A stretch of DNA of 64,000 nucleotides, taken from Candidatus Sumerlaeaceae bacterium (GTDB lineage Bacteria > Sumerlaeota > Sumerlaeia > Sumerlaeales > Sumerlaeaceae). The stretch covers positions 32,874 through 96,873 of the forward strand of contig JAOAAY010000004.1 in NCBI GenBank assembly GCA_026418615.1, read 5' to 3'. A model generated the notes under the pieces. The model made no database searches. It was not told where the DNA came from and saw only the letters and a program-made list of their open reading frames with translations. Each line of letters starts with the position of its first letter. Position 1 is the stretch's first letter. Below are positions 13,101 through 43,755 of this stretch, one piece after another. The position numbers were made by a program, and so were the translations under genes.

Positions 13101-13602
13101 GCGTGCCCGCGTCCGCGAAGGGCGCCAGTATCTCATCCGTTGGCATGTGACCAGCACTCAGTTGTCCAACCGAAACGCTGGTCTTCGGCTGCGCGGCCGG
13201 ACAGCGAAGTTTGCCTGGTCGCAAAAACTCGAACTGGGCGGCGCTTGGGCCACCGGCAGCGGCCTCAATGCCAACAATAGCATTGCCCAGCAGTTGCTGC
13301 CCGGTATCGGATGTCAGAATCCCAGCAAAATTGATAACGAGAACGGCGGCTGGTACAACATGTTTATGCATACGCCCATGAGCGTGGACATCCGACCGGA
13401 TGTCGCGGGTGTCTTGAGCGACCGCATGCCAAACCTTTCGGCGCAGCCGGGGCCGGGCGCAAATGCTGCCTCGCGCCGCGACCTGCTGCTCGGCGCTGAC
13501 CTCGTGGACTCGATCTCCGGCGGAACTAATGCGGGTCTTGAACGCGGCAACTTCACCGTGGATCGCATAGATGTGTACGATTACCCGCTGGTGGATGACT
13601 GA
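10117..13602 (+). CDS. large secreted beta-propeller (SBBP) repeat protein
   Basis: Signal peptide MKHCFLVPVWLFVCAGLTLSAA. More than 12 tandem copies of the SBBP unit [YSTYLGGSGxDxGxGIAVDxxGxxYVTGxTxSxNFP] (e.g. TGSSNFPVSG, TRSSNFPLEK, TNSDNFPTVS). 1161 aa. Confidence 0.75.
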   Translation: MKHCFLVPVWLFVCAGLTLSAARSEPATHTAQTAVALWEQLPLAFEPNVGQAPPDALFVSRGKGYAVSLCRDAILVGLERRPRTDRSMRSRLTSAGPDITTAGVAIRFSGVAPDVSFHPAERLPGVAHYYYGRDAGTWHTHVPRYARVEARGLYPGIDLAVYGNPLELEFDLVVAPGADPHAAALEVTGGECRLQPDGSLSIATAAGALILHAPVAYQIADGGQRRIPAEFVLAEASRVSFRVGEYDKTLPLVIDPVLSYSTYIGGSGTDEVHAIAVDASGRVYVTGSTTGSFPTKTGSYDVSFNGVSDVFITKLNPTAGSGSAALVFSTYLGGSGEDEGNGIVVDSSGRPVVCGVTASNNFPSTKLFGPQGGRDAFIVRLNSTGSAISYAVIAGGTANDFASGIALDASGNAYITGLTGSSNFPVSGSLQPYRGAGDAYVLKYRPTSNDLGYSTFVGGTLFDEGIAIAVDADGGAIITGDTDSTNFPLQEAFQTVLGGTTDAFLTRVRSDASRLSYSTFLGGTGFDIGYAVAVDAGFNPVVTGETRSSNFPLEKEYDSTYAGGPGDAFVTRFGNGGDELLFSTYLGGSGVDRGLGVAYGRDGSVFVAGETNSDNFPTVSAYSNSRAGSFDPFLTRFASGGKTLIYSTYAGGTGDDKPFGLALDSFGRAWLGGATTGGFPTAGSPYQSTYGGNTDGFISLLAPTVRTFQQDVFTSANIQPPGSATGWSVLASNPGLADADYSAALKALRGVIAPDASRFRIAGWISNASEWLPYAQIGTSRFVRAKYYLFTGGQSNPSLLNTIPNLRVRTSLRFAQNSMLEVFHHANGDPANATLARELRPSSDPTRPSLYRVDMDPVDVPYLAANSAVEGVLRAMEAYALDPQDNGYIAMSESIIGSYAATALPSGVDPVQSYNTSDAGAGSLAVVNPATELDLYCLILGTLPGEFGTRDPDPATTKPSYWENSAGVTLDATSVATDRVGIGSREFNPGASQTARARVREGRQYLIRWHVTSTQLSNRNAGLRLRGRTAKFAWSQKLELGGAWATGSGLNANNSIAQQLLPGIGCQNPSKIDNENGGWYNMFMHTPMSVDIRPDVAGVLSDRMPNLSAQPGPGANAASRRDLLLGADLVDSISGGTNAGLERGNFTVDRIDVYDYPLVDD

Positions 13603-18341: not shown

Positions 18342-19514
18342 GTGACCACGCGCCGATGTGCCATCATGCATATTGACATCCTCTACGATCCCCAAGCCGC
18401 GGCCGCAAGCGCACGCCGCATGGAGGCTATGTTTTCGTTAGGCATGGCGGACCGGCCGCCGGTCATCTGGGGTGCATGCCCGCGGATGCTGCTGGCCCGA
18501 CGGGGCTCCTCGTTTGCGCGCTTCTTTTCCGACCCCGTCACTCAGGCGACAGAAATCCTGCTCAACCATCAGTGGCTGGCCGAACATGTGCCGGGCGACA
18601 TGGTGACCGGCCTGACCGCCGGCATCCAGCCGCAATTTGAAAATGTCTCCAATTCCCAGTCGCTGGGGGCCGGCGTCCGGTGGGACGACCACCAGCCCCC
18701 GCAGGTCTTGCCGTGCATCCATACGGTGGCCGACCTCGAGGCCTACGAGCCGCCGCCCTTGGAGGGAACCCTCTGGCAGCGCATGATGGATTGGCACCGT
18801 GAAATGAAGGCATGGCTCGAGGGGGGCGGCGTGACCGTCACCATGCGCGGGGAACCGGTCAGTGTCGGCCTCGGTCTCCACATCGGCGGCGAAAGTCCGT
18901 TTTGCGTGGCCGTGGATTTGTGCGGCGCGCTGGCGTACGAGTGGCTGGTGGAGGCGCCCGAGGCCATGCACCGCCTTCTTGGGCTGATCACCGACCGCAT
19001 GATCGAGGTCGAGCGCATGATGCGCCGCCAGACGGGCGAGCCGGAGCGCGGAACATGGTTCCTGACCGACGACTCCGCGCAGATTGTCAGTCTGCGTTCC
19101 TACCGCGAATTTGTCGCGCCCTACAGCCTGCGCTTGTACGAGACCTTTACCGGCCCCGGCGACAAGCGCGTCATGCACTTATGCGGCAACCATGCGCATC
19201 TGTATCCGGCGCTGGTGGAGGACCTGCGGATTTCCGGTATCTGGGGATTCGGCGCCCCCGTCGCCCCCGAACAAGCCCGCGACGCCGTAGGGGGGCGCAT
19301 TTGGCTGGTCGGCAATCTCGATTGCAGCCTGCTTCGCGATGGCCCGCCCGACCGCATCGTGGCCGAAACGCGGCGCTTGCTCGACGCGCTGGGCCCCTGC
19401 GGCGGCCTCGGCGTCGGAGACGGGTACAATCTTATTCCGGATACGCCGCTGGAACATCTGCGGCTCGTCGTGGACACCGTCACGCAATGGGCCGCAGCGC
19501 TCAATCGCCCATGA
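18342..19514 (+). CDS. uroporphyrinogen decarboxylase (URO-D) family protein, MtaA/CmuA-like methyltransferase paralog 1
   Basis: 390 aa with URO-D/MtaA-like TIM-barrel composition (MHLCGNHAHLYPALVE..., C-terminal GGLGVGDGYNLIPDTP). Two further paralogs lie at 29336 and 41665. Confidence 0.7.
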   Translation: MTTRRCAIMHIDILYDPQAAAASARRMEAMFSLGMADRPPVIWGACPRMLLARRGSSFARFFSDPVTQATEILLNHQWLAEHVPGDMVTGLTAGIQPQFENVSNSQSLGAGVRWDDHQPPQVLPCIHTVADLEAYEPPPLEGTLWQRMMDWHREMKAWLEGGGVTVTMRGEPVSVGLGLHIGGESPFCVAVDLCGALAYEWLVEAPEAMHRLLGLITDRMIEVERMMRRQTGEPERGTWFLTDDSAQIVSLRSYREFVAPYSLRLYETFTGPGDKRVMHLCGNHAHLYPALVEDLRISGIWGFGAPVAPEQARDAVGGRIWLVGNLDCSLLRDGPPDRIVAETRRLLDALGPCGGLGVGDGYNLIPDTPLEHLRLVVDTVTQWAAALNRP

Positions 19515-21041: not shown

Positions 21042-22316
21042 CTATCGCGCCTGATTGGGGCGCGACTCGCGCGTGCCGCCAAGCAGCCACCCTAACCCGG
21101 CCACAGGCGGCCGCGGTGTCTCGTTGTTCGTGACTGCGGCCGGAGCCGGCGGCGTGGCTTCGGCCTGGGTCTTGCGGTATTTCGAGAAAAACATATACCG
21201 CTCCACGACCAGAATGCCGACCCCAAGGAGCAAAACGACCAGCATGGCAGCCGCGACCGTCATCAACCGCTGTTTGATGCGGTCCGCCGATTCCCGGATG
21301 AGCGGGCCGAGCCGAATCCGCACCTGAGCGTCGAGTTCCGAAGCGACAAGCGTCGACACCTGCCGCGGCAACTGCTTGTCGAGCACCTCGGCCAGTGTGC
21401 TCTCGGTCATGTCGGCAATTAAATCCTTTGCCATGCGCGGAACCAGTTTCTGCGCCGCGGCCTCGATGATCGAAACAACCTTTTGCGAAGCATCCGGCAC
21501 GAGGTTTTCGGCCTCCTTCTGGACGCGCCGCTGGACTTCCTTCGGCAGCATCTGATCCAGGCTCGCCTGAAGGTGCTCGCGGAGCATCGGCGGCAGCACC
21601 TGCTCTGCAGCGCGGCGCACGGCCTTTTCCGTCTCCTCGCGCAAGATGACATCAATGGATTCTGTGACGCGCCGCTCCGCAAGTTTCTCGATCATCGAGC
21701 GAGCCACTTCCTGAACGGTCATCTTGACGAGTTCCTGCTCCTTCTCGGCCGTCAACTGGCTGACGCGCTGCTCAACCTCGCGCCGTGCGCGATAATCCAC
21801 CTGGGAAACGACCATTTGCAGGGCGCGCTCGGTGATGATTTGCGTGCGCTGCTCGACGGCCTCCTGCAAGGTGGCCTCTGCCAACTGCTGCATCATGCGC
21901 TCGGCGGCGGCTTTGAGGTGGAGGCGTCCCTCCTCCAGCACCCGCTTCTCCTCGAGCAGCGTCGCCACCTTGCGCGCGAGTACCTCCGGCTCAAACGGCT
22001 TGCGGATGAATCCGTTGGCCCCCAACAGGTCCACGCTTTCGCTGTCCGAGGTTTCATCATCCGGAACCAAAAGCAGGACAGGTTTGTCAAAGAATTCCGC
22101 ATCAGTCCTGAGCGCCCGCGTGAGTTCGGCGCCGCTCAACTCCTTGAGCGATCGGTCAATGACCAGCAGGGCCACTTGGGACAGTTCCGGATAGGCGAGC
22201 GCCGCGATGCCGTTGGCCGCCGCGGCTACACGGTAGCCTTTCATTTCCAGCACACTGCGGCACATGTCCTGAATGGCCGCGCTCTCGTCCACCACGAGGA
22301 TCAATTCACCTGCCAT
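21042..22316 (-). CDS. response regulator: receiver domain, long coiled-coil, and C-terminal transmembrane anchor
   Basis: The receiver domain reads LILVVDESAAIQDMCRSVLEMKGYRVAAAANGIAALA...LLVIDRSL (phospho-Asp) ...GANGFIRKPF. About 250 aa of heptad-rich coiled-coil follow. A terminal hydrophobic helix reads LMTVAAAMLVVLLLGVGILVV. Confidence 0.75.
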   Translation of the reverse strand: MAGELILVVDESAAIQDMCRSVLEMKGYRVAAAANGIAALAYPELSQVALLVIDRSLKELSGAELTRALRTDAEFFDKPVLLLVPDDETSDSESVDLLGANGFIRKPFEPEVLARKVATLLEEKRVLEEGRLHLKAAAERMMQQLAEATLQEAVEQRTQIITERALQMVVSQVDYRARREVEQRVSQLTAEKEQELVKMTVQEVARSMIEKLAERRVTESIDVILREETEKAVRRAAEQVLPPMLREHLQASLDQMLPKEVQRRVQKEAENLVPDASQKVVSIIEAAAQKLVPRMAKDLIADMTESTLAEVLDKQLPRQVSTLVASELDAQVRIRLGPLIRESADRIKQRLMTVAAAMLVVLLLGVGILVVERYMFFSKYRKTQAEATPPAPAAVTNNETPRPPVAGLGWLLGGTRESRPNQAR

Positions 22317-22337
22317 CCGGGCGCCTCCTTGGGGTCA

Positions 22338-23702
22338 TCAGCCGAACACCTTCGCCGTCAGGTCGTCGAAAGTAAAATCGGCCAAAAGCATGATGGTCGC
22401 CCGCCGGCGCCATTCATCAAAAGCCTGTGAGAACAGGTCATGGGCTGCCTTGGGCCCCAGCCGCTGAGCGGCAAGCACATAAAGCATTTTCAAGCATCGG
22501 GTGACGGCCTCAAGCGTCTCGGCATAGGAACCCTTGAAAGCCCCCTCCACGCCGGCCCGCTCCACGAAACGGTCGAAACGGCCCGAATCCAGCCGGTTGC
22601 CCGACGCCGTAACCAGATCCGCCCGCGGACAAACCGTCACGGCCGTGCGCCAACATTGCTCCGCGAGATGATCGTCTGCTTGCCCCGTATAAAAGTTGGG
22701 ATCCGACACCAGACGGCGAATGAGATTGTTGGTCAGATCGGTCAAACACGCCACGGAGTTCGGGTAATGTAGGGCTGGCTCCGGCTCCGGCGGAGGCGCT
22801 GCCGCAGGAACTCCACCGTCCGGTTGCGGCACATCCCGCCGACGCGAAAACAGCGCCAGCAGACGCGCGGAGGTGGTGCCGGGTTGGGAGGCTTTCGGCC
22901 TCGGAGTATTCGGGCCGGATTCGCCTTTCATCCCCTGCATCATGACTGGCGGGCCGGCAACCGGCGGCTCCACGGGTGCCGTCTCTTTCTCCAACCGGAT
23001 CAGCCCCGCCGCTAGAAAAGAGTTGAGGATGCGGCAAGTCTCGAACCGGCCGACCCCGCTGCGCTGACAGATGGACTCGACCGTGCTGAAGCCGTTGATC
23101 AGCGACAAGACGCGCCACTCGTCGGGCGTCAGGTTGTCAATGTCGAGATCGGCCCGACCGCCGACCCGAACCACCGACGGCACCGCCGCTTCGCTCGGGA
23201 TATTTTTCACGATGCGGGCCCACTCGTCCTCCCGCCTCGCGCCCTCCATGACCAGACGGTCCACATCCAGTTCCACCACCGCCGGGCCGACTTCCTGCTC
23301 GCTGGAATGCTCAAACTTGAAGGTGCCTTCTCTCAGCGCAAAAAGGTCGTACACCTCTTCTTCAACCTGCAGGCGTATGGCCTGCGACAACTGCTCCCGG
23401 GTGAGAAGCCCCTGATCCACCAGCAAGTCGCCCAGAGGCGGCTGGCGCAAGGAGCGCTCCTGCTTCAGGATGGCCTCCTCCACATCACGCCGCGACACAA
23501 GACCGCGCGTCACCAGCATGTAACCCAGTTTTCGGGGACGCTCCACACTCGACGAGTTGACAACCCGTCCGGCACGGATCCCGATCCGCACAACCTTCTC
23601 GCCGTGCGTGACCGTAAGCGACCCGGTTAGGCGGTTCATGCCAACGAATTGCAGTACTTCAGGCAGGCTGACTGCAGAGTCGAGGCGTCCCTCAAGTTCC
23701 AT
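22338..23702 (-). CDS. DUF4388 (PatA-N-like) domain protein with tandem MshEN/T2SSE_N-type c-di-GMP-binding motifs
   Basis: N-terminus GRLDSAVSLPEVLQFVGMNRLTGSLTV matches DUF4388. The two 24-residue motifs KLGYMLVTRGLVSRRDVEEAILKQ and PLGDLLVDQGLLTREQLSQAIRLQ fit the MshEN consensus RLGxxLVxxGLIxxxxLxxALxxQ. Confidence 0.7.
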   Translation of the reverse strand: MELEGRLDSAVSLPEVLQFVGMNRLTGSLTVTHGEKVVRIGIRAGRVVNSSSVERPRKLGYMLVTRGLVSRRDVEEAILKQERSLRQPPLGDLLVDQGLLTREQLSQAIRLQVEEEVYDLFALREGTFKFEHSSEQEVGPAVVELDVDRLVMEGARREDEWARIVKNIPSEAAVPSVVRVGGRADLDIDNLTPDEWRVLSLINGFSTVESICQRSGVGRFETCRILNSFLAAGLIRLEKETAPVEPPVAGPPVMMQGMKGESGPNTPRPKASQPGTTSARLLALFSRRRDVPQPDGGVPAAAPPPEPEPALHYPNSVACLTDLTNNLIRRLVSDPNFYTGQADDHLAEQCWRTAVTVCPRADLVTASGNRLDSGRFDRFVERAGVEGAFKGSYAETLEAVTRCLKMLYVLAAQRLGPKAAHDLFSQAFDEWRRRATIMLLADFTFDDLTAKVFG

Positions 23703-29335: not shown

Positions 29336-30394
29336 TCAAACCCTGATGGGGTAGTCCCCCAGCCGCTGGCAGGCTTCGAGCATGGTTATGTAATTTTCGT
29401 ACTTCGCGTAGTCGGGCACACTGTTGCTCGAGCCGAGCGCGTAGCCGCCGCCGGGAGCAGCGCGGCGCAGCCGGTCGCGGACGAGCGCCTCCACCTGCTC
29501 CGGAGTCCCGCGCGCCAGCGTGTCCACCTCAATGCTGCCCAGCACGGCCAGCCGCCCGCACGCGCGCTCTTTCACCTCAGCCACATCCATGGATTTCGGC
29601 TCGATGGGATGCAGCGAGGTCACCCCGCACGCAATCAGGTCCTCCAGCACCTCCCAAAGCACCCCGTCGCTGTGGTAGAGGAACGGGATGCCGCGCGCCC
29701 GGCACAGCGCACCAATCTTCGCCACCCATGGGAACAAATGCTGGCGGTAAACTTTCGGGCTGACCATCAGCCCCCCCGTATAGGCAAGGTCGTCCGAATA
29801 CCAAAGCGCCTGCACCCTCGGAAACTCCGCCATGTGCTCAAACAAATGATAGATGAGCGCCCCAACGCACTGAAACAGCGCCTCGACCAGTTCCGGCTGC
29901 TCGAAAAGCGCCATGGCAAAGTTCTCGAATCCCATGACCTCCCAGACAAAAGTAAATATGTCGCCATATTGCCCGATGACAGCCATCTCATCCGGCAGAA
30001 TGCGCTCGGCCTCCTCGAAGCGCGCGTAACTCACCGTGTCAGGGTCCGGCCAGGGGAACTGCTCGAAATCCTCCATCGAGCGGATTGCCCCCTCGCCCTC
30101 CGCGGCCCAGTTGCGGTCCATGGCTGTCTTGGTCGCACCCATGTGGGGAACCACGCGCTTCCAACCCGGGCTCAACGAGATGCCGGGCTGCAACTTGATG
30201 TAGTCGTAACCCGCCCGCCGCGCAAATTCGATCTCGTCCGCCACCGAAATGCACGGACGACCGATCGCCTCTGATTTCCAGATCGGGTGAACTCCCAACT
30301 CGATGAGCGGCACACAATCCGGCTCGCCCTCGCACAACAGCGCACGCCGCAACCGCTGCCAGTCGGGCTTGCGTGTCAAATGATCCAATGTCAT
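29336..30394 (-). CDS. uroporphyrinogen decarboxylase (URO-D) family protein, MtaA-like paralog 2
   Basis: 352 aa, URO-D family fold composition (…ALWYSDDLAYTGGLMVSPKVYRQHLFP…FLYHSDGVLWEVLEDLIACGVTSLHPIEP…). Similar in length and architecture to the ORF at 41665. Confidence 0.7.
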   Translation of the reverse strand: MTLDHLTRKPDWQRLRRALLCEGEPDCVPLIELGVHPIWKSEAIGRPCISVADEIEFARRAGYDYIKLQPGISLSPGWKRVVPHMGATKTAMDRNWAAEGEGAIRSMEDFEQFPWPDPDTVSYARFEEAERILPDEMAVIGQYGDIFTFVWEVMGFENFAMALFEQPELVEALFQCVGALIYHLFEHMAEFPRVQALWYSDDLAYTGGLMVSPKVYRQHLFPWVAKIGALCRARGIPFLYHSDGVLWEVLEDLIACGVTSLHPIEPKSMDVAEVKERACGRLAVLGSIEVDTLARGTPEQVEALVRDRLRRAAPGGGYALGSSNSVPDYAKYENYITMLEACQRLGDYPIRV

Positions 30395-30721: not shown

Positions 30722-33700
30722 ATGAGGCAATTCGTACGGATTTCTGCGTGGGCGGCTGCAGTGGCTGTTGGGATGTTGGCGGGGTTGTCAGCGGGCGCGA
30801 GGCCCGCTCAAGGGCCGGATGCGGCGCCCAAAACCGTTCGCGTGGAGGTGCTCGACGCTTCCGGCAAACCGGCCAGAGGGGCCGAGGTCGCTCTGGTGAC
30901 GCTCAGGTTCGGGCGGTTTGACGGCTGGCGAGAGGCCCCGGACGGCAAGGCCGAATTGGCAATCCCATCCGACCAGAACAGATTTGGGCTTGAGGAGTCC
31001 GCACAAGAGGAGATCGCAGCGCGGGCACCCGGCCACGCGCCTGCCACGGTCAAGTGGAATCCCGAAAGCGGTTCGTCAGCCACGGTGCGGCTCAAACGCG
31101 GCAAGCGCGTCAATTTAGAAATCAAAACCGCTGATGGCCGGCCGTTGCCGGAAGGAGTTCTACCCGTCGTTTTTGCGCCAAAGACTCGCATGCAAGTGTT
31201 GAGGCCCTTAGTATCCGCCTTCGGCACCACTTCGGGACCACTGTTCCATTATTATCGTGTCGAACAACGCGCACCGGGCCGTTTCAGTGTCATGGTCTCA
31301 CCGGAAGACGGGCCGTTGACTGTTTATGTGGACTGTCCCGGTCTGCTGCGCGGATTTGTGAGCGAGGCATTTGAGCCCAAAGCGTGGGACAAGCCGCTCA
31401 TCGTTCAACTGCCCGCGGCCGGGACGGTCGTCGCCACCTTCGAGCCCAAGCCCGCCATCCGCACCGACCTGACGACTTTCATCGTCAGCCTGCGGGGGAA
31501 GGATCCGATGCCGGCCTTTTACGATCTCGCCGCCGTGGTGTCGGGCGCCGGGCAGCCGCGACGCGCGGTGTTCCCGGATCTTGCCCCCGGACAATACGAT
31601 ATTCTGGCCGAGACCGGAACTGGATGGGTGAAGCGGGCATGGGCTGGTCCGGAAACAGTTGCCGTCCAGGGCGGCTCCTCGGCCACGGTTGCTCTCAAGC
31701 AACGGCCAGCCTTACCGGCGTTGCGGGTGACCGACGCGGCGACCACCGGCCGCCCCGTGAGGGCATCCGCATTTGTGATTCGCAAACAGCGTGACTTATT
31801 CCTGCTGACGGGCACGGGCTGGGTCCCTGTTGGGCCTGACGGCCGCATCCGCTTTGACATGAACCAATTTGCCCCCCGCGACCCATGCGAGGACGCGAGT
31901 CCGTGGGAGTATCCGGTACTGGTCAAGGCACCCGGATTTGCTCCGAAAACCTTGACGCTTCGTACCTCGACTGTCGCCACGACGGAGGTCATTGTCCCTC
32001 TTGAACGCGGCAATCCGATCGAAATTGTTCTCGAACCGCCCGAAGGGATGTCCATTCCGGAAGACCTCATCCCCGCCGTGTGGTTTCCACCTTTTGGTCC
32101 GATCCTCGGCTTGATACCCTATACGACGAGCCTGCAGGAGGTTTGGGCACAATCGCCGGTGCTCGATACGGAAAGGATCGCGCCGGGACGCTACAGGGTC
32201 CGCATCACCACGGGCACAGAACAGTTGGTGGTCGGCGTTCACCACTCAAGGTTCCTGCGTGGATTTGTGTCGGATGTTTTCTCTCTTCAGGATCTCTCGG
32301 GCAGCCCGCTTGTGCTCCGGCTGCCCAAACCCGGCGGCCTTGAGGTCACCGCAGATGTGCGCGAATACTTAAAAACACCGGGACCCAAACCGGATTCCAT
32401 TGAACTGACCATGATGCCCGCTGAGGCGGGTGACCGCATGCCCATCAACGCCTTGGGCTGGCAACGCAGACTTGGCCTACAAGACGGAATAGCCTCTTAC
32501 CAGGCGGCAGATCTGGCCCCCGGGCGCTATGAGGTTTTCATCACGGCGGCTTTTGACGCGGGTGACGACCAGCGCAAAACATTGAGCGGCAATTCCGAGT
32601 TGAAAGTTGAGTCCGGCACGACAGCCACCGCAACGATCGCCCTGTCCGACACCACCAGCCGTCGCGGTCCCCGGCAATTTGCTTTGCCTGAGGTTCGCGT
32701 CCTCAGCGCGACCGGCAAACCCGTGACCAATGCCCGGGTCTTTGCTCGCCGGGTTGGCGACGAGATGAATGTCACGCGGGGTGAGGCGGCCGGCGACGGC
32801 CGTTACCAATGCAAGCCATTGGTTGCATGGTCCATGACAACGGGGGAACCGTTGACCTCGGCCACGGCGGAATTGCTCGTCACCGCACCGGGTCACACCG
32901 CAACGACCATGACGCTTGAGGTGCCGACCCGCCAAAATCTGATCACGGTGCGACTGAAAAAAGGTCGCGAGGTGGAGTTGCGCCTCAACCCTGCCGAGGG
33001 AACTTCCATCCCGGAGACCCTTGAGCCGATCATCTGCGACGAGACGATGCTAGGCGCTGCATGGATCGGGCTTTCACCCGACTCGGCAGACAAAGGGTTT
33101 TCTCTGGCCAGTGTCACGCGGACCGGCACTGGACGCTACACTTTCCAAGTCGCCAAGGAGACAAGCGGACTCTATGTGCTGATCCACGAGCCCGGCTTCC
33201 TGCGAGGATTTCAAGCAGGCCCCTTCGGGGCGGACCAAGTGGCCAAAGGGCGCATTGAAGTGGACTTGCCGAAACCGGTGACGCTGACCGCACGGTTCCG
33301 TCCTGCGAAGCCCGACACCCCTGCCACTTATACAGCGTGCTGGGCCGCGATTGACCGCCTCGTGATGCTGCCCGGGGAGAGATTCATGTACATGAAGATC
33401 GCCCAAACCGAAGCGGCCGGCACGACGCTCGAAGCACAGTTCTCCGATCTCGCGCCCCTCGACTTGAGGGGCCGGTATAGCGTCGAGGCTGGTACAGGGC
33501 GTTTATCCGAGCGGTTTGGGCCGCCTGGACAATCCTACAGCGACCGCGCCGAGGCGGACTTCCAGGACGGCACCAGTGCCACAGTTGAAATCCTTTACGA
33601 GCCCTTCGACCGCGACATGCTCAAAGGACCGTACACGGCTGTTGTGACGGTGCTCGGGCGAGACGACAAACCTTTGGATGGAAAGCCGTTCCGCGTCACT

Positions 33701-34423
33701 TATTACGACCGCAAATTCGGCCCCCACACCGTCGCTCAGGGAACCATTCCGTCATCGGGTGTCGTGGAATTGCGCGGACTGGCCGGCGGCGTGGACAAAC
33801 CGACCTCTTTGAGCGAATTTCGCGGGAAATTTCCACCAACTTATACTTTTACCATCGGCGACGAGGATATTGGCTCCATCCAATTCGTCAAATTCGACCG
33901 CCAGAGCGGGCTGGTATTGCCGGCACATACCGATCAGGTGGCCGAATTCACTTTCCGGATGCCGCCGGTCGTCGGCGATATGGCACCGGATATCGAATTG
34001 ACCGAAGTTTTCGGCGACGGGACGCTGCGTCTCTCCGATCTGAGGGGACAGGTCGTTTTCCTCGATTTCTGGGCCACATGGTGCGGCCCGTGTCAGGATC
34101 CCATGAAGGCGCTCAACGAACTGGCTGCCAAACACAAGGATGACTGGGCAGGGAAGGTCGCGCTGATCGGGGCCAGCATTGACGACAACAAGGCTACGGT
34201 GCAGAAACATGTGAAAAAGAAAGGCTGGGAGAGCGTGCGCCAAATGTGGTGCGCCGTGCCGGATGGCTCAGGCGGCTGGGAAGCCCCGCAAGTGCGCACC
34301 TACGGCGTTCGCGGCGTGCCCACCGCCCTCCTCATTGATCAGCAGGGCCGCATCGTCTGGCGGGGGCATCCGGCCGGATTCAACAAAGAGGGCGAAATCA
34401 CACGGCTGCTGCAAAGCAAGTAA
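30722..34423 (+). CDS. giant secreted protein: three carboxypeptidase-regulatory-like/beta-sandwich repeat modules fused to a C-terminal TlpA/ResA-like thioredoxin domain
   Basis: Signal peptide MRQFVRISAWAAAVAVGMLAGLSAGA. Repeated modules containing VRVEVLDASGKPARGAEVAL-type starts and PGLLRGFVSEAF / SRFLRGFVSDVF / PGFLRGFQAGPF. C-terminal LRGQVVFLDFWATWCGPCQ thioredoxin-fold active site. Confidence 0.8.
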   Translation: MRQFVRISAWAAAVAVGMLAGLSAGARPAQGPDAAPKTVRVEVLDASGKPARGAEVALVTLRFGRFDGWREAPDGKAELAIPSDQNRFGLEESAQEEIAARAPGHAPATVKWNPESGSSATVRLKRGKRVNLEIKTADGRPLPEGVLPVVFAPKTRMQVLRPLVSAFGTTSGPLFHYYRVEQRAPGRFSVMVSPEDGPLTVYVDCPGLLRGFVSEAFEPKAWDKPLIVQLPAAGTVVATFEPKPAIRTDLTTFIVSLRGKDPMPAFYDLAAVVSGAGQPRRAVFPDLAPGQYDILAETGTGWVKRAWAGPETVAVQGGSSATVALKQRPALPALRVTDAATTGRPVRASAFVIRKQRDLFLLTGTGWVPVGPDGRIRFDMNQFAPRDPCEDASPWEYPVLVKAPGFAPKTLTLRTSTVATTEVIVPLERGNPIEIVLEPPEGMSIPEDLIPAVWFPPFGPILGLIPYTTSLQEVWAQSPVLDTERIAPGRYRVRITTGTEQLVVGVHHSRFLRGFVSDVFSLQDLSGSPLVLRLPKPGGLEVTADVREYLKTPGPKPDSIELTMMPAEAGDRMPINALGWQRRLGLQDGIASYQAADLAPGRYEVFITAAFDAGDDQRKTLSGNSELKVESGTTATATIALSDTTSRRGPRQFALPEVRVLSATGKPVTNARVFARRVGDEMNVTRGEAAGDGRYQCKPLVAWSMTTGEPLTSATAELLVTAPGHTATTMTLEVPTRQNLITVRLKKGREVELRLNPAEGTSIPETLEPIICDETMLGAAWIGLSPDSADKGFSLASVTRTGTGRYTFQVAKETSGLYVLIHEPGFLRGFQAGPFGADQVAKGRIEVDLPKPVTLTARFRPAKPDTPATYTACWAAIDRLVMLPGERFMYMKIAQTEAAGTTLEAQFSDLAPLDLRGRYSVEAGTGRLSERFGPPGQSYSDRAEADFQDGTSATVEILYEPFDRDMLKGPYTAVVTVLGRDDKPLDGKPFRVTYYDRKFGPHTVAQGTIPSSGVVELRGLAGGVDKPTSLSEFRGKFPPTYTFTIGDEDIGSIQFVKFDRQSGLVLPAHTDQVAEFTFRMPPVVGDMAPDIELTEVFGDGTLRLSDLRGQVVFLDFWATWCGPCQDPMKALNELAAKHKDDWAGKVALIGASIDDNKATVQKHVKKKGWESVRQMWCAVPDGSGGWEAPQVRTYGVRGVPTALLIDQQGRIVWRGHPAGFNKEGEITRLLQSK

Positions 34424-34449
34424 ACATCTTGATCAAGGGGGTAGAGACC

Positions 34450-36384
34450 ATGCGAAAGTCTCACAGAAACCTGCTGCTGGCCGCGCTGGCGACACTCGCG
34501 ATCCTGACGATCGCACCAGTCGCCGACGCCAATGAGCCTTCGGGTGACCCATCGGCTCAGGTTCACCCGTTGCTCGCCCACATGCCAGAACGGTTCAGAC
34601 GGACGGCGGAAGTCGTCCCAATGTACGCTCCGCCGCTGATGGTTGTTGCCGCTGATGACGGGTTGCCGGTCACCAGCGCCTCGCTGGCGCTCATGTCCGA
34701 CTCCGGTCCGTTCGAAAACACTTCGGCGACACATGAAGGCAGGGGGCGCTACCGGTTCGCTCCGCTGGAACAGATCCGGTCCAAATCGAGGACGATGACC
34801 ACACAGTCCCTCTCCTTGTTAGTCACGGCACCAGGGTTCGTGCCGGAGACGACCTCGATCGTGCTCAATGAAAGGGCGCCCCTGCCGGGCGAGATGACTG
34901 TCCGCCTCGGCCGGGGGCGTCCCGTCACGCTGGAGATCACCCGCGAGGACGGGCAGCCGCTGCCCCAAACCTTGGAACCCATCATAGCCGACCGGGACAC
35001 GCTGGAGGCCATTTGGTGCACGCTCGGATGGCAGACCGGCCCCTTGCGTTTTGGTTTGTATCCCGTGCGGCGCATGGCCCCGAACCGCTGGGAGTTTGGC
35101 GCCAAACCCGGGCAGCATGAGGTTTTTGTGATCGTGGACGAACCGGGGCTGTTGCGGCACTTCGTGGCCGGGCCGTTGAATGTGGAGGACGGCACAACGG
35201 CCTCCCTCATAGTGCGCCTGCCGAAGGCTTGTGCAATCACCGCACGGTTTCGCCCCGCGGAGGGTGTCGCCCGGCCAGCCTACCGCCGATGCACACTGGC
35301 GGTGACGCGCTCTGTCGATGTGCCGGGCGGCAAACCATCAAACTACGGAACCACCGTGGCCTCGTTCACTGGCGAAGGACCCACGGTAGAGCATGTGTTT
35401 GACGATCTGGCCCCGCCCACGGACGACTCTGGCTACTGGGTGCAAGCCATGACAGATCCGCACCCCGCTGAAGGGCTCGACGGGAAATACGCTTTCTCCG
35501 GCGGCGATTCCCCGGATTTTGGCAACGGGACCTCAGCCACCGTGGAAATCCTGTACAAGCCACTCAGCATTCGTCAGGTGCAGGGCGGGCTGACGGCCGT
35601 CGTCCGGGTGACGAATGCAAAAGGCGAGCCGGCAGCCGGCAAACCGTTTGAACTCCTGTGGCACCCCCGCAACTATCCCGAGGTTACGCTGACCTCGGGC
35701 ACCATCCCGACATCCGGGGTTGTGGAATTTCCGGGTTTGGGGGGCGCACCGGAAAAAGTCATGACAATAGCCGAAGCCCAAAAATCCGGATGGGAGCCAG
35801 CCCATCTGGAGTTTGTCCTCGACGGGGAAAGCGCGGGAATGATACGGTTTTTCCAGGTGGATGAGAAGGCGGGCGTTGTCCGGCCGGCGGTTGATGACAA
35901 CCGGCGCGTGTTCGAGTTTCGAGTTCCGCTGCGACCGGGCGACGAGACGCCAGATATCGAGTTGACTGACCTCGCAGACGGCCGGGTGTTCCGGCTCTCC
36001 GATTTGCGCGACCAGGTGATCTATCTCGATTTCTGGGCGACCTGGTGCGGGCCCTGCCAGCGACCTATGCATGAACTGGACGATCTCGCCCGACGCCGCG
36101 CGGCCGAATGGACGGGCAAGGTGTCGCTCATCGGGGTGAGCATAGACGAGACGACAGAGGTCGTCGTGCGGCATCTGGAGAAAAACGGTTGGACTGCGGC
36201 ACGGCAGGCTTGGTGCCATCCGGTTTCCGGCTCGACAGGCCGTGCGTCGGCGCAGGTCAAAGCCTTTCAAGTGACGGGATACCCGACGGCGTTTCTTATC
36301 GGCGCAGACGGAAAACTGATTTGGACGGGGTATCCCGGCCCCGAAATTGAAAGCATCATTGAGAAGGCCCTCGGCAGCCGCTGA
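34450..36384 (+). CDS. secreted paralog of upstream gene: one repeat module plus TlpA-like thioredoxin domain
   Basis: Signal peptide MRKSHRNLLLAALATLAILTIAPVADA. EPGLLRHFVAGPL and GTSATVEILYKP repeat the upstream protein, and LRDQVIYLDFWATWCGPCQ is the active site. The gene sits 26 nt downstream of the preceding gene, and an RBS AAGGGGG precedes the ATG. Confidence 0.8.
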   Translation: MRKSHRNLLLAALATLAILTIAPVADANEPSGDPSAQVHPLLAHMPERFRRTAEVVPMYAPPLMVVAADDGLPVTSASLALMSDSGPFENTSATHEGRGRYRFAPLEQIRSKSRTMTTQSLSLLVTAPGFVPETTSIVLNERAPLPGEMTVRLGRGRPVTLEITREDGQPLPQTLEPIIADRDTLEAIWCTLGWQTGPLRFGLYPVRRMAPNRWEFGAKPGQHEVFVIVDEPGLLRHFVAGPLNVEDGTTASLIVRLPKACAITARFRPAEGVARPAYRRCTLAVTRSVDVPGGKPSNYGTTVASFTGEGPTVEHVFDDLAPPTDDSGYWVQAMTDPHPAEGLDGKYAFSGGDSPDFGNGTSATVEILYKPLSIRQVQGGLTAVVRVTNAKGEPAAGKPFELLWHPRNYPEVTLTSGTIPTSGVVEFPGLGGAPEKVMTIAEAQKSGWEPAHLEFVLDGESAGMIRFFQVDEKAGVVRPAVDDNRRVFEFRVPLRPGDETPDIELTDLADGRVFRLSDLRDQVIYLDFWATWCGPCQRPMHELDDLARRRAAEWTGKVSLIGVSIDETTEVVVRHLEKNGWTAARQAWCHPVSGSTGRASAQVKAFQVTGYPTAFLIGADGKLIWTGYPGPEIESIIEKALGSR

Positions 36385-36518
36385 TGGTCATCCTTAACTT
36401 TTGAACGGCACGGAGGGAATGCCCGCCGCCGGGCTATTGTTCTGTTGTGATAAAGTCCGCGACGGCTGCCCTCCGGCTGCCGTTCGGTTGACAATTGTAT
36501 TGCAGGATAACTCAACGG

Positions 36519-37526
36519 ATGACCGAGGTCCCACCGGCGCACCCCAACAGGCGCCTCTCCAGATTCGCCGCGTTCGTCGCGGGTTACACCTTCGTCCTCA
36601 TCACTGCGGGGGCGCTTGTCACCGGCAACAATGCGTCGCTGTCCGACCACACCTGGCCTACCTTTGCCGGTAATGTGTTGCCGGCCAAAGAGACCTTTGT
36701 CCGCGGCCTGATTTACGAGGACACGCATCGCATCCTCGCGGGCGTGTTTGGCTTGCTGGTCATCGCGCTGGCTCTCTGGGTTCAGTTCACCGATCGCCGC
36801 CTGTGGCTGAAGTTGCTGGCGTGGGGGGTGGTTGTGGCGACCGGCCTACAGGGGCTTGTGGGAGGAGTCATTATCCTGTACCTGCGGCCGGTGCTGGTCT
36901 CGATGCTGCACGGTGTGCTGGGGCAAAGTATTTTCATCGGTGCGGCGGTCATTGCGGCGGCCACCTCGCCGCTCTGGGAGCGCGAGCACGGCAGTGCAGG
37001 CGTGCGGCCGGGCGTCGTGGCCTTTCGTGTGCAGTGTGTGCTGGCGACGGCGCTTGTCTTTGGCCAGTTGATTCTCGGTGCGGCGACGCGTTTCGCCTAC
37101 GGCTTTTTTACTTATCTCGTCGTGCTCCATGTCTGCATGGCCTTTCTCATCATTGCAGCAGCCATCTGGCTGGGCATGACGGTATCGCACCATTTCCGGG
37201 ATGTCGCGCCGTTGCGGCGCTCATTTGTCCGTCTCGGCTGGCTGATCGGCACCCAAGTCTTGCTGGGTATCGTGGCCATCTTTGCGAACCGGTCCCGCTT
37301 CGAGTTGGAATTGAAAGGCCCGATTCCCGAGGCCCAGTTCGGCCTTGAACTCGAAGCACCTCATCAGTTCCTGGTGCTGCTCTCCACGGCGCATGTTGCT
37401 GTGGGGGCACTCATCCTGATTACCATGGCCTTGATCACAATTCTGTCTTTCCATCTGCTGAGTGCGGAGCCCGCCGAGGAACGCAGCATGAACCGGGCAG
37501 GCTTGGCCGAGGGTGAGGCGGCGTGA
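36519..37526 (+). CDS. ctaA: heme A synthase (COX15/CtaA family)
   Basis: Polytopic membrane protein with conserved His-containing helices (HRILAGVFG, HGVLGQSIF, HVCMAFLII, HVAVGALIL). Its stop overlaps the ctaB start (GTGA). Confidence 0.8.
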   Translation: MTEVPPAHPNRRLSRFAAFVAGYTFVLITAGALVTGNNASLSDHTWPTFAGNVLPAKETFVRGLIYEDTHRILAGVFGLLVIALALWVQFTDRRLWLKLLAWGVVVATGLQGLVGGVIILYLRPVLVSMLHGVLGQSIFIGAAVIAAATSPLWEREHGSAGVRPGVVAFRVQCVLATALVFGQLILGAATRFAYGFFTYLVVLHVCMAFLIIAAAIWLGMTVSHHFRDVAPLRRSFVRLGWLIGTQVLLGIVAIFANRSRFELELKGPIPEAQFGLELEAPHQFLVLLSTAHVAVGALILITMALITILSFHLLSAEPAEERSMNRAGLAEGEAA

Positions 37527-38428
37527 GGTTGCGAACCGCCACGGCTGTCATGGACGGCCCGTCGCAGGGTATTGCGGCGCGCCTGTCGGACTACCTTGAA
37601 CTCACCAAACCCGGCATCGTGACGATGACGGTGGTCACCACCGCGGGGGGCTACTACATGGCGCATTCCGGAGCACTGGATCTGTGGCGGTTTGCGCATG
37701 CGCTGATGGCCTCGATGCTGCTGGCGGCGGGCGCTTGCGCGCTCAACCAATATATGGAACGCGATGTGGACGCCCTGATGGAGCGCACGCGACGCCGCCC
37801 CCTCGCGGCCGGCCGCATCGGAGCCGCCGGCGCCTTTGCGTTTGGTCTGATGTTGGCATTGTCCGGGCTGGCTTACCTGACCTTTGGGGTGAACCTCGCT
37901 GCGGGCGCTGCCGGGGCGCTGGCCTTGGGCAGTTATATCCTTGTCTACACCCCGTTCAAACGGGTCAGCAGTCTGTGCACGCTGGTCGGCGCCATTCCGG
38001 GGGCGATGCCCCCTGTCATCGGCTGGGCGGCGGCCACTGGCGGTATCGGCTTCGGCGCCGGCGTATTGTTTGCCATCATGTTCCTTTGGCAAATCCCCCA
38101 TTCGCTGGCCATCATGTCCATGTACCGGGAGGACTATGCCCGGGCCGGTCTGCCGCTGCTGCCAGTGGTTGACACAACGGGCGAGGCCACCGTGCGCCAG
38201 TCGCTCGTGAACGCGGTCGCGCTGCTCGTGGCCTGCGTCATGCCATCGGTCGCGGGAATGACCGGTTTGACTTACGCCGCAGGCGCAGCGTTGCTGGGCG
38301 GTTGGTTTCTCTATCTGAATGTGCGCTGGTTTCTTGATCCGGCGCGCCCGCGTGCGCGGCGCGTGTTTTTCGGCTCGCTCATCTACCTGATGGCACTTTT
38401 CGCCCTGCTGGTCGCCGGCAAGGTCTGA
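37523..38428 (+). CDS. ctaB: protoheme IX farnesyltransferase (heme O synthase), UbiA family
   Basis: ALNQYMERDVDALMERTRRRPLAAGRI (Asp-rich prenyltransferase motif) and a nine-TM UbiA topology. The GTG start overlaps the ctaA stop. Confidence 0.85.
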   Translation: MRLRTATAVMDGPSQGIAARLSDYLELTKPGIVTMTVVTTAGGYYMAHSGALDLWRFAHALMASMLLAAGACALNQYMERDVDALMERTRRRPLAAGRIGAAGAFAFGLMLALSGLAYLTFGVNLAAGAAGALALGSYILVYTPFKRVSSLCTLVGAIPGAMPPVIGWAAATGGIGFGAGVLFAIMFLWQIPHSLAIMSMYREDYARAGLPLLPVVDTTGEATVRQSLVNAVALLVACVMPSVAGMTGLTYAAGAALLGGWFLYLNVRWFLDPARPRARRVFFGSLIYLMALFALLVAGKV

Positions 38429-38440
38429 CCGGCGCGCCCG

Positions 38441-39079
38441 TCAAAGGCGCCGCAAAACGCCCACCACTTTTCCAGCCACTGCAAAACTGCCGTCTGATTT
38501 CGGCACGCGGATCGGCTCAAACGCGGGATTCTCCGGCTGAAGTCGCCACTCACTGCCCTCATCGTAAATGCGTTTCACTGTGGCCTCATCCCCAAGGATC
38601 GCCACGCCGATCTCGCCCTGCTCGACCCGCGTTTGCTGGCGTACAATGACGAGGTCCCCATCCATGATACCGGCTTCAATCATGCTGTCGCCGCGGACGC
38701 GAAGCGCAAATGTTCTCTCCCCAGCCGGAAAAAACCCGTCGAGCGTCACCATGCCGTCAAAGTTTTGCTGCGCGAGGATCGGCTGCCCCGCGGCCACACG
38801 ACCGAGCAGCGGGATACCCTTCCCCGCCGCCGGAGGAACCGGCGTGCGACGGCGGCGACGCAGCGCGGCAGACCGGAGCGCGAAGGTGCGTGCCTGACGC
38901 GTCGGACGCTCAAGCAAACCTGTCCGCTCCAGTTTGTTCAGATAATAAGCCACGGTATTCGTTGACCGGAAACCCATTTCCGTCGCGATCTCCCGCACGG
39001 ACGGATAAACCCCTGTCTCAGCGTGGCGACGCTGGATATATTCGAGGATCGCCAATTCCTTGTCATTGTCGCGTGTCAT
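38441..39079 (-). CDS. lexA: LexA repressor (SOS regulator, S24 peptidase)
   Basis: N-terminal wHTH LAILEYIQRRHAETGVYPSVREIATEMGFRSTNTVAYYLNKLERTGLLER. C-terminal VRGDSMIEAGIMDGDLVIV (Ser nucleophile) with a downstream Lys. Confidence 0.9.
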   Translation of the reverse strand: MTRDNDKELAILEYIQRRHAETGVYPSVREIATEMGFRSTNTVAYYLNKLERTGLLERPTRQARTFALRSAALRRRRRTPVPPAAGKGIPLLGRVAAGQPILAQQNFDGMVTLDGFFPAGERTFALRVRGDSMIEAGIMDGDLVIVRQQTRVEQGEIGVAILGDEATVKRIYDEGSEWRLQPENPAFEPIRVPKSDGSFAVAGKVVGVLRRL

Positions 39080-39259: not shown

Positions 39260-39336
<77 letters not shown>

Positions 39337-41664: not shown

Positions 41665-42723
41665 TCAGTAGGCGCCGTACTGCCGGGCAAGGCTGAGGGC
41701 GCGCCGGTACTGGTCATAACTGACATTGGGCGGCACGCTGTGGTCGCTGTGAAAGATGTAGCCACCATGGCGCTTGGCGGCTTCCAATTTGGGAATAATC
41801 TCGCGCTCGAGAGCGGCCGGGTCCGGGTCGGCCATGGCGCGCGTGTCAATGTTGCCCATGAACGACAGACAGTCGCCATACTGGTTGACGAGTTGGCACA
41901 CATCCATGCCGGCCTTGACCTCGAGTGGCTGGAGGCAATCCACGCCAGCCTCGATCAGGTGGGGTATGAGCAGGTGGATATCCCCGTCGGTATGATAGAT
42001 GACCGGCGCGCCGCGCGCGTGGTGAAAAGAGCACAGCGCGCGGTCAGACTCCAGGATGGTCTCGCGGTAGAGTTTCGGCGAGAACAGCGGGCCGTTGCGG
42101 TAGGCCATGTCGTTGAAAAACCATGCCGCGTCAGGCTCGAAGCCCGCGGCAATCACCATTTCCGTCATCCTGAGGGTCAACTCGGCGACCGTCTCGACCA
42201 TCTCGCGGAACCAGCGCGGGTTCTCGATCATGATGACGAGCAGTTCCTCGGTCTTGATAAGGTTTTGCAGGTAATCAAAACCGATGACGGCGTTGAGAGT
42301 GACGCATTTGCCCTCGGAGCGGGCACGCTGGTAGCGGCTGCGCAGCGTGACCCAATCGCAGCGCGTGTAGTCGGGCTGGAGGCGCTCCTTCACACGCAGC
42401 CAGTCATCATAAGTTTTGACGCCCCAGTCAATGATTTCGGGTGTGCTGGCCAAAGAGCGCAAGTTGCGCCGGACGCCGCCGAAAGGCGTGGTCTCGACTA
42501 CATATTGGTCGTCGGCGTGAAGGGTTTTGATTTCGAACATCGGGGAGTTGTCAAACCAGATGCTGACGATCTCCCAACCGAAATGGTCTTCGGGGGAAAT
42601 CCCGGCCGGGTATCCCTCGCGTTCCCAACGGCGCATCGTCTCGACCCACACAGAATCGTGGATGGGGACGCGATCGGCCTTGTCGCGCCTGAGTGCCCTC
42701 AATACGCGTTCGCGGCTATCCAC
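41665..42723 (-). CDS. uroporphyrinogen decarboxylase (URO-D) family protein, MtaA-like paralog 3
   Basis: 352 aa, URO-D family composition (…VIYHTDGDIHLLIPHLIEAGVDCLQPLE…GYIFHSDHSVPPNVSYDQY…). Co-linear similarity with the ORF at 29336. Confidence 0.7.
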   Translation of the reverse strand: MDSRERVLRALRRDKADRVPIHDSVWVETMRRWEREGYPAGISPEDHFGWEIVSIWFDNSPMFEIKTLHADDQYVVETTPFGGVRRNLRSLASTPEIIDWGVKTYDDWLRVKERLQPDYTRCDWVTLRSRYQRARSEGKCVTLNAVIGFDYLQNLIKTEELLVIMIENPRWFREMVETVAELTLRMTEMVIAAGFEPDAAWFFNDMAYRNGPLFSPKLYRETILESDRALCSFHHARGAPVIYHTDGDIHLLIPHLIEAGVDCLQPLEVKAGMDVCQLVNQYGDCLSFMGNIDTRAMADPDPAALEREIIPKLEAAKRHGGYIFHSDHSVPPNVSYDQYRRALSLARQYGAY

Positions 42724-42735
42724 GGCAGTCAGGCA

Positions 42736-43755
42736 TCAGGCGCTGCGCTGCGCGAGTGTTCGTTCGATTTCCTGCAACCGCTCCCACGAAAGCAGTTCGC
42801 CATACTCGATGGCGTCCTTGAACCGGTTGAGGTCGAGGTGCATCAGGGCCCATTCCTTGTTGGTGTCATGAGCGACGATGGCACCGATCTCGTCAGTGGT
42901 CCAATAGACGGCCTCCCACACATGGCCGCCGATTCGGATGCGCAGCACGCGGCCGCGCTCGAGCGTATCCCGCGGTTCGAGCCGGCGGTGGTAGTGCGCG
43001 GGCGCAGGCTCGCGCTGAGCCTCCGGCTGTTCGGGAGCAGCGGCTGGTGCGGGCGGTGGAGTGTAGGCGGGCCTTGGTCGCGGGGGAGTGCGCTGCTCGA
43101 GCGCGCGCACCTTGGCGATATGCTCGTAACCGTCGAGGTGAAAGATGACCACATCGCGATCCCAGCGTCCCTGCGCGATCATGTCGGCAAATGCCTCGCG
43201 CGAGAGTTGGCCGATGCGCATCTTGTCGTACTGCTCGAGGAAGATGCCGCGCGGGGCTACCGTGCCGTCGGGCTCGAGGAAGTAAAACAAGGCATAATCC
43301 TTGCCGCTGACGGCATCCTTGTAAATGGCGAGGCTACCATCGTCGAAACACATGATGGTACCCATCTGCAAATCGTCGCCGGCGGGAGAAGCCGCGGGTC
43401 GGCGCGGGGGCGGCGCCGAGGCAGGAGCCGGTGGCGGTTGGGGGGGCTTAGCCCGGCGGGACGCCTGTGCCCGGGGCGAATCGTCCCAGTCGGTCTCGTC
43501 CAATTCGCTGACGGGCTTAGCCTCGACCTCCTCATCGTACTGCGAGGGCTGGCGTTGCGATTGCTTCAATTTGTCATAAAACGCTTTGTAACGGGGGTCG
43601 TCCTGATACGACCGCCGGTCACCCCGCGGATTATCCTCTGGCTTGCCTGGTTTGCGTTTCACTTCAGGGAGTCCTACCTCACCCGTAGCCTGCTCTCTCG
43701 CAACAGCGTACTTCCAGTCCTCCGCCCTGTCTGACGAACTGAGAGGACGGGACAC
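42736..43755 (-). CDS. hypothetical Pro-rich protein
   Basis: 339 aa with an acidic/basic low-complexity N-terminus, Pro-rich linkers (PPQPPPAPASAPPPRRP; PPRPRPAYTPPPAPAAAP), and two ~90-aa globular segments. The first ~300 nt have locally lower GC. Confidence 0.45.
   Translation of the reverse strand: MSRPLSSSDRAEDWKYAVAREQATGEVGLPEVKRKPGKPEDNPRGDRRSYQDDPRYKAFYDKLKQSQRQPSQYDEEVEAKPVSELDETDWDDSPRAQASRRAKPPQPPPAPASAPPPRRPAASPAGDDLQMGTIMCFDDGSLAIYKDAVSGKDYALFYFLEPDGTVAPRGIFLEQYDKMRIGQLSREAFADMIAQGRWDRDVVIFHLDGYEHIAKVRALEQRTPPRPRPAYTPPPAPAAAPEQPEAQREPAPAHYHRRLEPRDTLERGRVLRIRIGGHVWEAVYWTTDEIGAIVAHDTNKEWALMHLDLNRFKDAIEYGELLSWERLQEIERTLAQRSA

Follow-up and report, generated by a model that had tools for sequence, protein, structure and literature searches.

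Two consecutive genes, here called A and B, lie directly upstream of the heme A synthase and heme O synthase genes ctaA and ctaB in a stretch of 64,000 nucleotides (nt) from a Candidatus Sumerlaeaceae bacterium (contig JAOAAY010000004.1 of assembly GCA_026418615.1); this whole stretch is referred to as the window. Our analysis suggests that A and B probably encode exported thiol-disulfide reductases of the TlpA/ResA/Etrx class, located in the periplasm or envelope, whose catalytic domains are carried on fast-evolving spacer or binding scaffolds. Judged from sequence comparisons, the scaffold of about 430 amino acids (aa) and the thioredoxin domain behind it form one inherited unit, which defines a family of Planctomycetota, the only named members, and Sumerlaeaceae. 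The link between A/B and ctaAB appears to rest on local gene order in a few close relatives, not on family-wide evidence.

Gene A (30722-34423, + strand) encodes a product of 1233 aa in which a predicted signal peptide is followed by three scaffold modules, the first two truncated and the third full, and by a TlpA-like thioredoxin domain. The product is identical to an NCBI protein (P0001) encoded on a 191,877-bp contig of a metagenome-assembled genome (MAG), which is named 'MAG: TlpA family protein disulfide reductase [Candidatus Sumerlaeaceae bacterium]'. Gene B (34450-36384, + strand) encodes 644 aa, in which a predicted signal peptide precedes a single full scaffold and a thioredoxin domain of the TlpA-like type. 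The open reading frame (ORF) of B opens at 34429 or 34450; because the identical NCBI protein P0012 (644 aa, with the same name as P0001) starts at ATG 34450, this codon was taken as the start. A preliminary description of the locus, made from the DNA letters, had reported two consecutive genes of 1233 and 645 aa. Both + strand ORFs and the length of A agree with this account, and the length of B is corrected to 644 aa.

Each product ends in a thioredoxin-fold domain of the TlpA/ResA/Etrx-like type, which spans residues 1083-1233 of A (33968-34420, +) and residues 495-644 of B (35932-36381, +). The Pfam matches to AhpC-TSA (54 bits in A and 51 in B), Redoxin (45 and 46) and Thioredoxin_8 (47 and 45) were all above the cutoffs of 26-27 bits. 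The sole CxxC of each protein is found in a WCGPC motif at residues 1120-1124 of A and 532-536 of B (CGPC at 34082-34093 and 36046-36057), which lies within FWATWCGPC (A 1116-1124, B 528-536), and the sequence at the cis-Pro loop position reads GVPT in A and GYPT in B. Together, the Pfam matches and the single WCGPC of each protein bear out the C-terminal TlpA/ResA-type domain that had been noticed before. In peroxiredoxins the characteristic motif is PxxxTxxC; a peroxiredoxin reading of the AhpC-TSA match was rejected because the motif in A and B is the thioredoxin-type WCGPC.

To place these domains among known reductases, we compared them with proteins of described structure and with equivalog models. 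In a phmmer search against PDB, the thioredoxin domain of B matched pneumococcal Etrx2 best (2yp6, E value 2.8e-14), followed by ResA, DsbE and TlpA. Foldseek gave the same domain target-normalised template modelling (TM) scores of 0.8-0.86 to DsbE, ResA and Etrx2 and of about 0.64 to TlpA. The best matches of the A/B domain are thus ResA, CcmG (DsbE) and the pneumococcal Etrx1/Etrx2 (4nmu, 3gl3 and 1st9 in addition to 2yp6), which are extracytoplasmic and reduce apocytochrome c or MsrAB. All of these depend on electron input of the CcdA/DsbD type. They are single-domain proteins of 140-190 aa with a lipid or transmembrane-helix anchor, whereas A and B are multidomain proteins, and the window holds no cytochrome c maturation or msrAB genes. 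TlpA of Bradyrhizobium, the membrane-anchored reductant of ScoI and CoxB (PDB 1jfu, 4txo, 4txv), likewise has a thioredoxin fold outside the cytoplasm and a CxxC of the reducing type, and its likeness to the A/B domain reached an E value of 8e-9 in phmmer. The active site of TlpA is CVPC, compared with CGPC in A and B. TlpA is a protein of about 220 aa with one transmembrane anchor and no beta-sandwich scaffold, whereas in A and B the domain is carried on a long scaffold; A and B are encoded close to cytochrome oxidase cofactor genes and have no Sco or CoxB partner in the window. None of the equivalog cutoffs was reached, either for TlpA (NCBIfam NF047696; A 47.3 and B 36.8 bits against 230), ResA (NF002854; 66.1 and 55.8 against 170) or DsbE-CcmG (TIGR00385; 36.5 and 25.4 against 123). 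By these scores, the thioredoxin domains of A and B are members of the superfamily and orthologs of neither ResA nor TlpA.

The N-terminus of A (MRQFVRISAWAAAVAVGMLAGLSAGA; 30722-30799, +) is hydrophobic and is predicted to be a Sec signal peptide or signal anchor, with a putative cleavage site. In the Kyte-Doolittle profiles, the N-termini of A and B represent the hydrophobicity peak of each protein and have positively charged starts, and no other transmembrane-like segment was found in either profile. From this N-terminal hydrophobicity, export of both proteins appears likely. The scaffold of B (residues 56-494; 34615-35931, +) was modelled as an all-beta array of transthyretin/CarboxypepD_reg/CnaB-like sandwiches. 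The AlphaFold2 models, which had a mean predicted local distance difference test (pLDDT) score of 79 and a predicted TM score (pTM) of 0.65 for full-length B and values of 83.5 and 0.75 for its scaffold alone, show the all-beta array followed by the thioredoxin fold. According to these models, the scaffold consists of four to five beta-sandwich domains of the prealbumin-like type, arrayed ahead of the thioredoxin domain. The earlier view of signal-peptide proteins built of multi-module beta-sandwiches is consistent with the hydrophobic N-termini and the lack of a further transmembrane segment, with the signal peptide predicted from hydrophobicity alone. The likeness of the modules to carboxypeptidase regulatory domains, which had also been proposed, holds at the level of the fold in AlphaFold2 and Foldseek, but not as a Pfam sequence match: the cutoff of CarboxypepD_reg (PF13620, 32.3 bits) was not reached, with a sub-threshold match at A 658-702 and no match in B. 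Indeed, the scaffold matches no Pfam family. The same limit applies to the likeness with the CarboxypepD_reg, transthyretin-like and CnaB stalks of surface proteins and pilins, which moreover end in an adhesin tip, whereas the array of A and B ends in a redox enzyme. Isopeptide or sortase features did not come to light in A and B, although no search was aimed at them.

A hidden Markov model (HMM) of the scaffold resolved A into two truncated modules of about 300 aa each, one full module of about 430 aa and the thioredoxin domain. In hmmsearch, module 1 (30815-31723, +) covered HMM positions 3-313 with 104 bits, module 2 (31724-32650, +) positions 4-308 with 98 bits, and the full module 3 (32669-33967, +; four to five beta-sandwich domains) positions 2-434 with 646 bits. 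BLASTP aligned B to residues 653-1233 of A with 38% identity (E value 1e-115) and more weakly to residues 32-365 and 332-667, which correspond to modules 1 and 2 (E values 7e-21 and 3e-13). Described earlier as repeated modules of about 300 aa, the internal repeats are real, but they are not of equal size. A motif PG[FL]LR[GH]F, said to recur in the modules, occurs once per module at A206, A824 and B232, and module 2 of A has the variant SRFLRGF instead. The suggestion that B is essentially a duplicate of the last module and thioredoxin domain of A was confirmed in that B and the C-terminal unit of A are paralogs sharing 38% identity. In a neighbour-joining tree of the scaffold-thioredoxin unit, B and its orthologs were sister to A and its orthologs. 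Because A and B share 38% identity, compared with 55% for the ortholog pair of A and 57% for that of B, the duplication is old; the tree and identities indicate paralogs that separated long ago inside a single lineage.

To reveal the distribution of the scaffold, a scaffold-only profile (A1), from which the thioredoxin part had been removed, was searched against 1.84 billion cluster representatives. It retrieved 464 protein clusters (50% identity) at E<=1e-3 and 162 at E<=1e-30, indicating from sequence that the composite family comprises at least 464 clusters. Among the top 150 scaffold matches, 95 are 540-700 aa long, and 88 of these 95 have a hydrophobic N-terminus. A thioredoxin domain spanning the active-site region follows directly after the scaffold in 130 of the 150, the CxxC being kept in 126 of the 130, and the top matches without this domain are mostly fragments ending inside the scaffold. 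With 11 matches of the full-length query included, the order of scaffold and then thioredoxin domain was found in 141 of 160 proteins, and the remainder are again mostly fragments. Both A (650-1082 followed by 1083-1233) and B (56-494 followed by 495-644) have a scaffold of about 430 aa directly before the thioredoxin domain. The named family members all belong to Planctomycetota (Pirellulales, Caulifigura), and one locus, L008, is a Planctomycetota MAG. A scan of genome contigs with the pattern [DE]FWATW[CS][GA] found mostly generic TlpA genes, and among the loci retrieved the scaffold was present only in L008. The three-module form is rare (P0001, P0002, P0003, P0014 and P0015). By length and module content, B appears as a typical member of about 600 aa, and A as a rare three-module expansion with two extra truncated scaffold copies in front.

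The scaffold-thioredoxin unit is also reused in larger proteins. In some of them it follows a BlaR1 peptidase M56 domain, with a BlaI-type repressor encoded upstream, in others an extracytoplasmic function (ECF) sigma-70 domain; elsewhere it precedes a PDZ domain or a BPL_N-like domain. The fusion proteins are P0006 (L004-L007), P0016, P0017, P0019, P0091, P0042 and P0015. The CxxC has been lost in a few members, namely P0006/P0016 (FWATWSAGRPEP), P0098, P0101 and P0126. The BlaR1, ECF sigma and PDZ fusions point to a general envelope redox module.

A TlpA domain on a large repeat scaffold had been taken for an unrecognised architecture. This is not supported, as the unit occurs in at least 464 clusters, mostly of about 600 aa like B, which already bear generic labels such as 'TlpA family protein disulfide reductase' and, at JGI, 'thiol-disulfide isomerase/thioredoxin'. 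The fusion is thus widespread and annotated in a generic way, but its scaffold does not belong to a well-characterised family, and our literature searches for a scaffold-TlpA architecture found no description. The principle of joining a thioredoxin domain to a beta-rich non-catalytic partner is shared with the Bacteroidetes TlpA-like lipoproteins, which have an N-terminal extra domain (PDB 3fw2, which is the C-terminal domain only, was among the Foldseek matches), with NHLRC2, which has an NHL propeller, and with DsbD, in which the Ig-like nDsbD is combined with cDsbD. In these three cases the non-catalytic domain positions the thioredoxin domain or selects its substrate; NHLRC2 has been discussed beside TlpA-like folds (PMC6107167). 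Compared with them, the scaffold of A and B is a distinct array of about 430 aa outside any Pfam family, which occurs in three copies in A and is reused in BlaR1 and ECF-sigma sensors. As a separate observation, an Opitutaceae MAG encodes a protein of 1010 aa (P0005) with at least four tandem TlpA-like thioredoxin domains, three of them with WCGPC, and without the beta-sandwich scaffold.

The gene order A-B-ctaA-ctaB is kept in one other locus, L001, and a single 2-kb contig (L093), obtained from a metagenome scan with CtaA, shows ctaA-ctaB preceded by no more than the end of B. However, all 11 genes compared between L001 and the window stand in collinear order, throughout a 16-kb region. Because unrelated genes are included in this collinearity, the conserved A-B-ctaAB order gives no specific hint of function. 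In this comparison, ChlI, URO-D, ABC-3, ctaA, ctaB and lexA are 86-93% identical between the window and L001, and the trypsin-like, FKBP and GAF-HD proteins 67-77%. The region of A and B (window 30722-36384, L001 8169-13841) has diverged much more, with A 55% and B 57% identical and the scaffold modules at 42-61%, which makes the scaffolds the fastest-evolving sequence in the syntenic block. The thioredoxin domains are 86% (A) and 66% (B) identical. These identities suggest that the catalytic domain of A is under as much constraint as the best-conserved neighbour genes, with the scaffolds drifting quickly. Such fast drift fits a spacer or a binding part that faces changing partners, rather than a second enzyme.

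Outside this collinear group, no association with heme A synthesis was seen. The ctaA-ctaB pair was not found in nine other family contexts examined, including those of P0014, the sister of A, of P0003, which has a three-module build like A, and of P0004, P0006, P0020, P0024, P0044 and P0048. P0014 is followed by an opposite-strand gene, and neither P0014 nor P0003 has an adjacent B-type gene. In addition, tblastn searches with CtaA and CtaB over 94 loci (1.3 Mb), 80 of which are generic TlpA loci, gave matches only in L001 and L093. Among the loci compared, the expected co-occurrence of the fusion with ctaAB is therefore limited to L001 and L093 and absent from the nine other contexts. No cox, sco, ccdA/dsbD, cytochrome c maturation or msrAB gene was found in the 64-kb window.

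The ctaA-like heme A synthase gene (36519-37526, +; 335 aa) matched Pfam COX15-CtaA with 52 bits (cutoff 29.9); its score of 16 bits against the alphaproteobacterial NCBIfam equivalog (cutoff 550) is expected for a distant type. CtaA is 89% identical to its L001 ortholog counted from the same ATG, and ATG 36519 is most likely the start. The heme O synthase gene ctaB (37550-38428, +) matched TIGR01473 with 270.5 bits (cutoff 210.3) and starts probably at ATG 37550, with GTG 37523 as the alternative. A 4-nt overlap of ctaA and ctaB, which needs GTG 37523, is doubtful because the L001 ortholog of ctaB starts at the equivalent of 37547-37550, 23 nt past the ctaA stop. Hence, the identities of the heme A synthase/heme O synthase pair stand, and the proposed translational coupling by overlap is in doubt. 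On inspection of its sequence, CtaA of the window has no extracytoplasmic (loop) cysteine pairs, cysteines being present only in predicted transmembrane segments; in this it resembles the cysteine-free CtaA types reported for Planctomycetes and Verrucomicrobia (PMC8239418). Because such pairs are lacking, CtaA would not be a thiol-redox client, and the idea that A or B reduces a CtaA loop disulfide was rejected on the same ground (classes per PMC8239418).

The intergenic gaps measure 26 nt between A and B and 134 nt between B and the probable ctaA ATG, so that A and B do sit upstream of ctaA-ctaB as first described, at 134 nt instead of 130. The B-ctaA gap holds a GC hairpin (36421-36444, +) that resembles a terminator and has a T-rich tail; it is a consensus match only. 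The terminator scan called this one site compared with 0.1 expected in shuffles, and the gap folds more stably than shuffled sequence (z -2.6); in L001 the scan called no + strand site. A separate ctaA promoter in this gap is plausible. Blocks of the gap are conserved at 36430-36460 and 36500-36518 of the window, 13870-13905 of L001 and 40-75 of L093. They read GGGAATGCCC..., ATTGTnCTGTT and, just ahead of the ctaA ATG, GCAGGATA, and may function as promoter, operator or terminator.

If A and B are envelope reductases, they would first be exported through the Sec pathway. Their CGPC would be kept reduced by a thiol-electron transporter in the membrane, of the CcdA/DsbD type and without a gene in the window, and the reduced domain would hand electrons on to envelope proteins with oxidised cysteines. 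The non-catalytic scaffold may serve for spacing, or for binding and positioning. The location upstream of ctaA-ctaB would be inherited local synteny of Sumerlaeaceae and not a feature of the family, and maturation of an aa3 oxidase would be one of several possible uses of A and B, a dedicated role being possible but unsupported. Some observations weigh against so general a role. In both the window and L001, the four genes from A to ctaB follow one another on one strand without interruption, with genes of the opposite strand on either side, and co-expression of A and B with heme A synthesis is possible in the Sumerlaeaceae lineage. In addition, Sumerlaeota carry aa3-type oxidases, which need thiol reduction for CuA and sometimes for heme c (PMC8092238); because these oxidases are encoded in the phylum, a CuA or heme c client may be encoded in another part of the genome.

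These observations lead to the scenario that A and B are dedicated reductases of oxidase biogenesis, co-transcribed with ctaAB and reducing the CuA-ligand cysteines of CoxB/Sco or the CxxCH of cytochrome c, which we consider rather unlikely. The close spacing of the four genes on one strand, their order in L001 and L093, the aa3-type oxidases of Sumerlaeota (PMC8092238) and the place of the A/B domain in the structural neighbourhood of TlpA, ResA and DsbE all speak for it, as does the known role of TlpA in the reduction of CuA and Sco, with 4txo and 4txv among the Foldseek matches. However, the relatives that share the order are collinear across 16 kb with unrelated genes, so the order carries no specific signal, and P0014 and P0003 have neither ctaAB nor an adjacent B-type gene. 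Neither ctaA nor ctaB was found in the other family contexts or in the 80 generic TlpA loci, the scores of A against the TlpA and ResA equivalogs (47 and 66 bits) are far from the cutoffs of 230 and 170, and a terminator-like hairpin separates B from ctaA. The window contains no cox, sco or ccs genes, and its CtaA has no loop cysteine pairs. On this evidence, the functional link to heme-copper oxidase biogenesis put forward in the preliminary description is not supported: ctaAB accompanies the unit only in the collinear L001 and L093, the equivalog cutoffs were missed, CtaA offers no loop cysteine pair, and a hairpin lies in the gap. A broader version, in which the unit is a portable extracytoplasmic redox module of Planctomycetota and Sumerlaeota, acting as a reductase when free in the periplasm and also providing BlaR1-type and ECF-sigma signal transducers with their thiol-sensing input, and in which A and B were recruited to a ctaAB operon for aa3 maturation, seems unlikely as a whole.

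It is quite improbable that the unit works primarily as a sensing or binding module, that is, as an extracytoplasmic sensor of thiols, redox state or ligands, with A and B as soluble binders, adhesin-like surface proteins or decoys. The unit does form the extracytoplasmic part of BlaR1 M56 proteins, beside a BlaI-type repressor, and of sigma-70 fusions; P0006/P0016, P0098, P0101 and P0126 have lost the CxxC, and the scaffold evolves fast, like surface-exposed proteins, and is similar to pilin, adhesin and stalk domains. Against this, the CxxC is retained in 126 of 130 complete domains, A and B retain both the CGPC and the cis-Pro loop, and the thioredoxin domain of A is conserved like its housekeeping neighbours (86%), which argues for a selected catalytic function. 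Inspection of the sequence after the thioredoxin domain also revealed no LPXTG, lipobox or C-terminal secretion domain. A chimeric MAG contig or spurious long ORFs might be suspected, as the source is a metagenome-assembled genome and high-GC DNA yields many long spurious ORFs, but the probability of such an artefact is negligible. Orthologs that agree in architecture and order are present in independent assemblies (L001 from JGI; P0013, P0003 and P0014 from other samples), by which this reading is effectively refuted, and the domain matches are strong, the AlphaFold2 models confident and the GC content uniform across the locus (about 62%, as over the whole window).

Under the favoured explanation, that of exported reductases on scaffolds, A and B would belong to the routine redox housekeeping of the envelope in an uncultivated phylum, and the value of the finding lies mainly in annotation. 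The finding delimits a scaffold domain family without a Pfam model, and exposes a conserved composite unit that is hidden by the 'TlpA family' labels on proteins of 600-1300 aa. The reuse of the unit in BlaR1-like and ECF-sigma-fused proteins hints at thiol-based envelope sensing in Planctomycetota.

The four-gene block, all on one strand, is flanked by a URO-D-like gene in divergent and by lexA in convergent orientation. The lexA gene (LexA_DNA_bind and Peptidase_S24; 38441-39079, -) converges on ctaB, with 12 nt between the stop codons, and a tRNA-Met gene (39260-39336, +) lies just beyond it. Three paralogous URO-D-like genes of the uroporphyrinogen decarboxylase family are found inside 25 kb (18342-19514, +; 29336-30394, -; 41665-42723, -), one of which is divergent from gene A in an arrangement kept in L001. 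Their scores are modest (65-92 bits), and they may be methyltransferase-type relatives of URO-D, not HemE. At 9925-13602 (+), the window encodes another large and probably exported protein (1225 aa; DUF7948 and SBBP beta-propeller repeats), which is unrelated to A and B, and a DUF4388-domain protein and a response-regulator receiver protein are encoded as a neighbouring pair at 21042-23702 (-). Another ORF, of 664 aa (41740-43734, +), is partly antisense to the third URO-D-like gene (41665-42723) and is probably one of the spurious ORFs typical of high-GC DNA; its GC content at third codon positions (GC3) is 0.66, lower than that of real genes.

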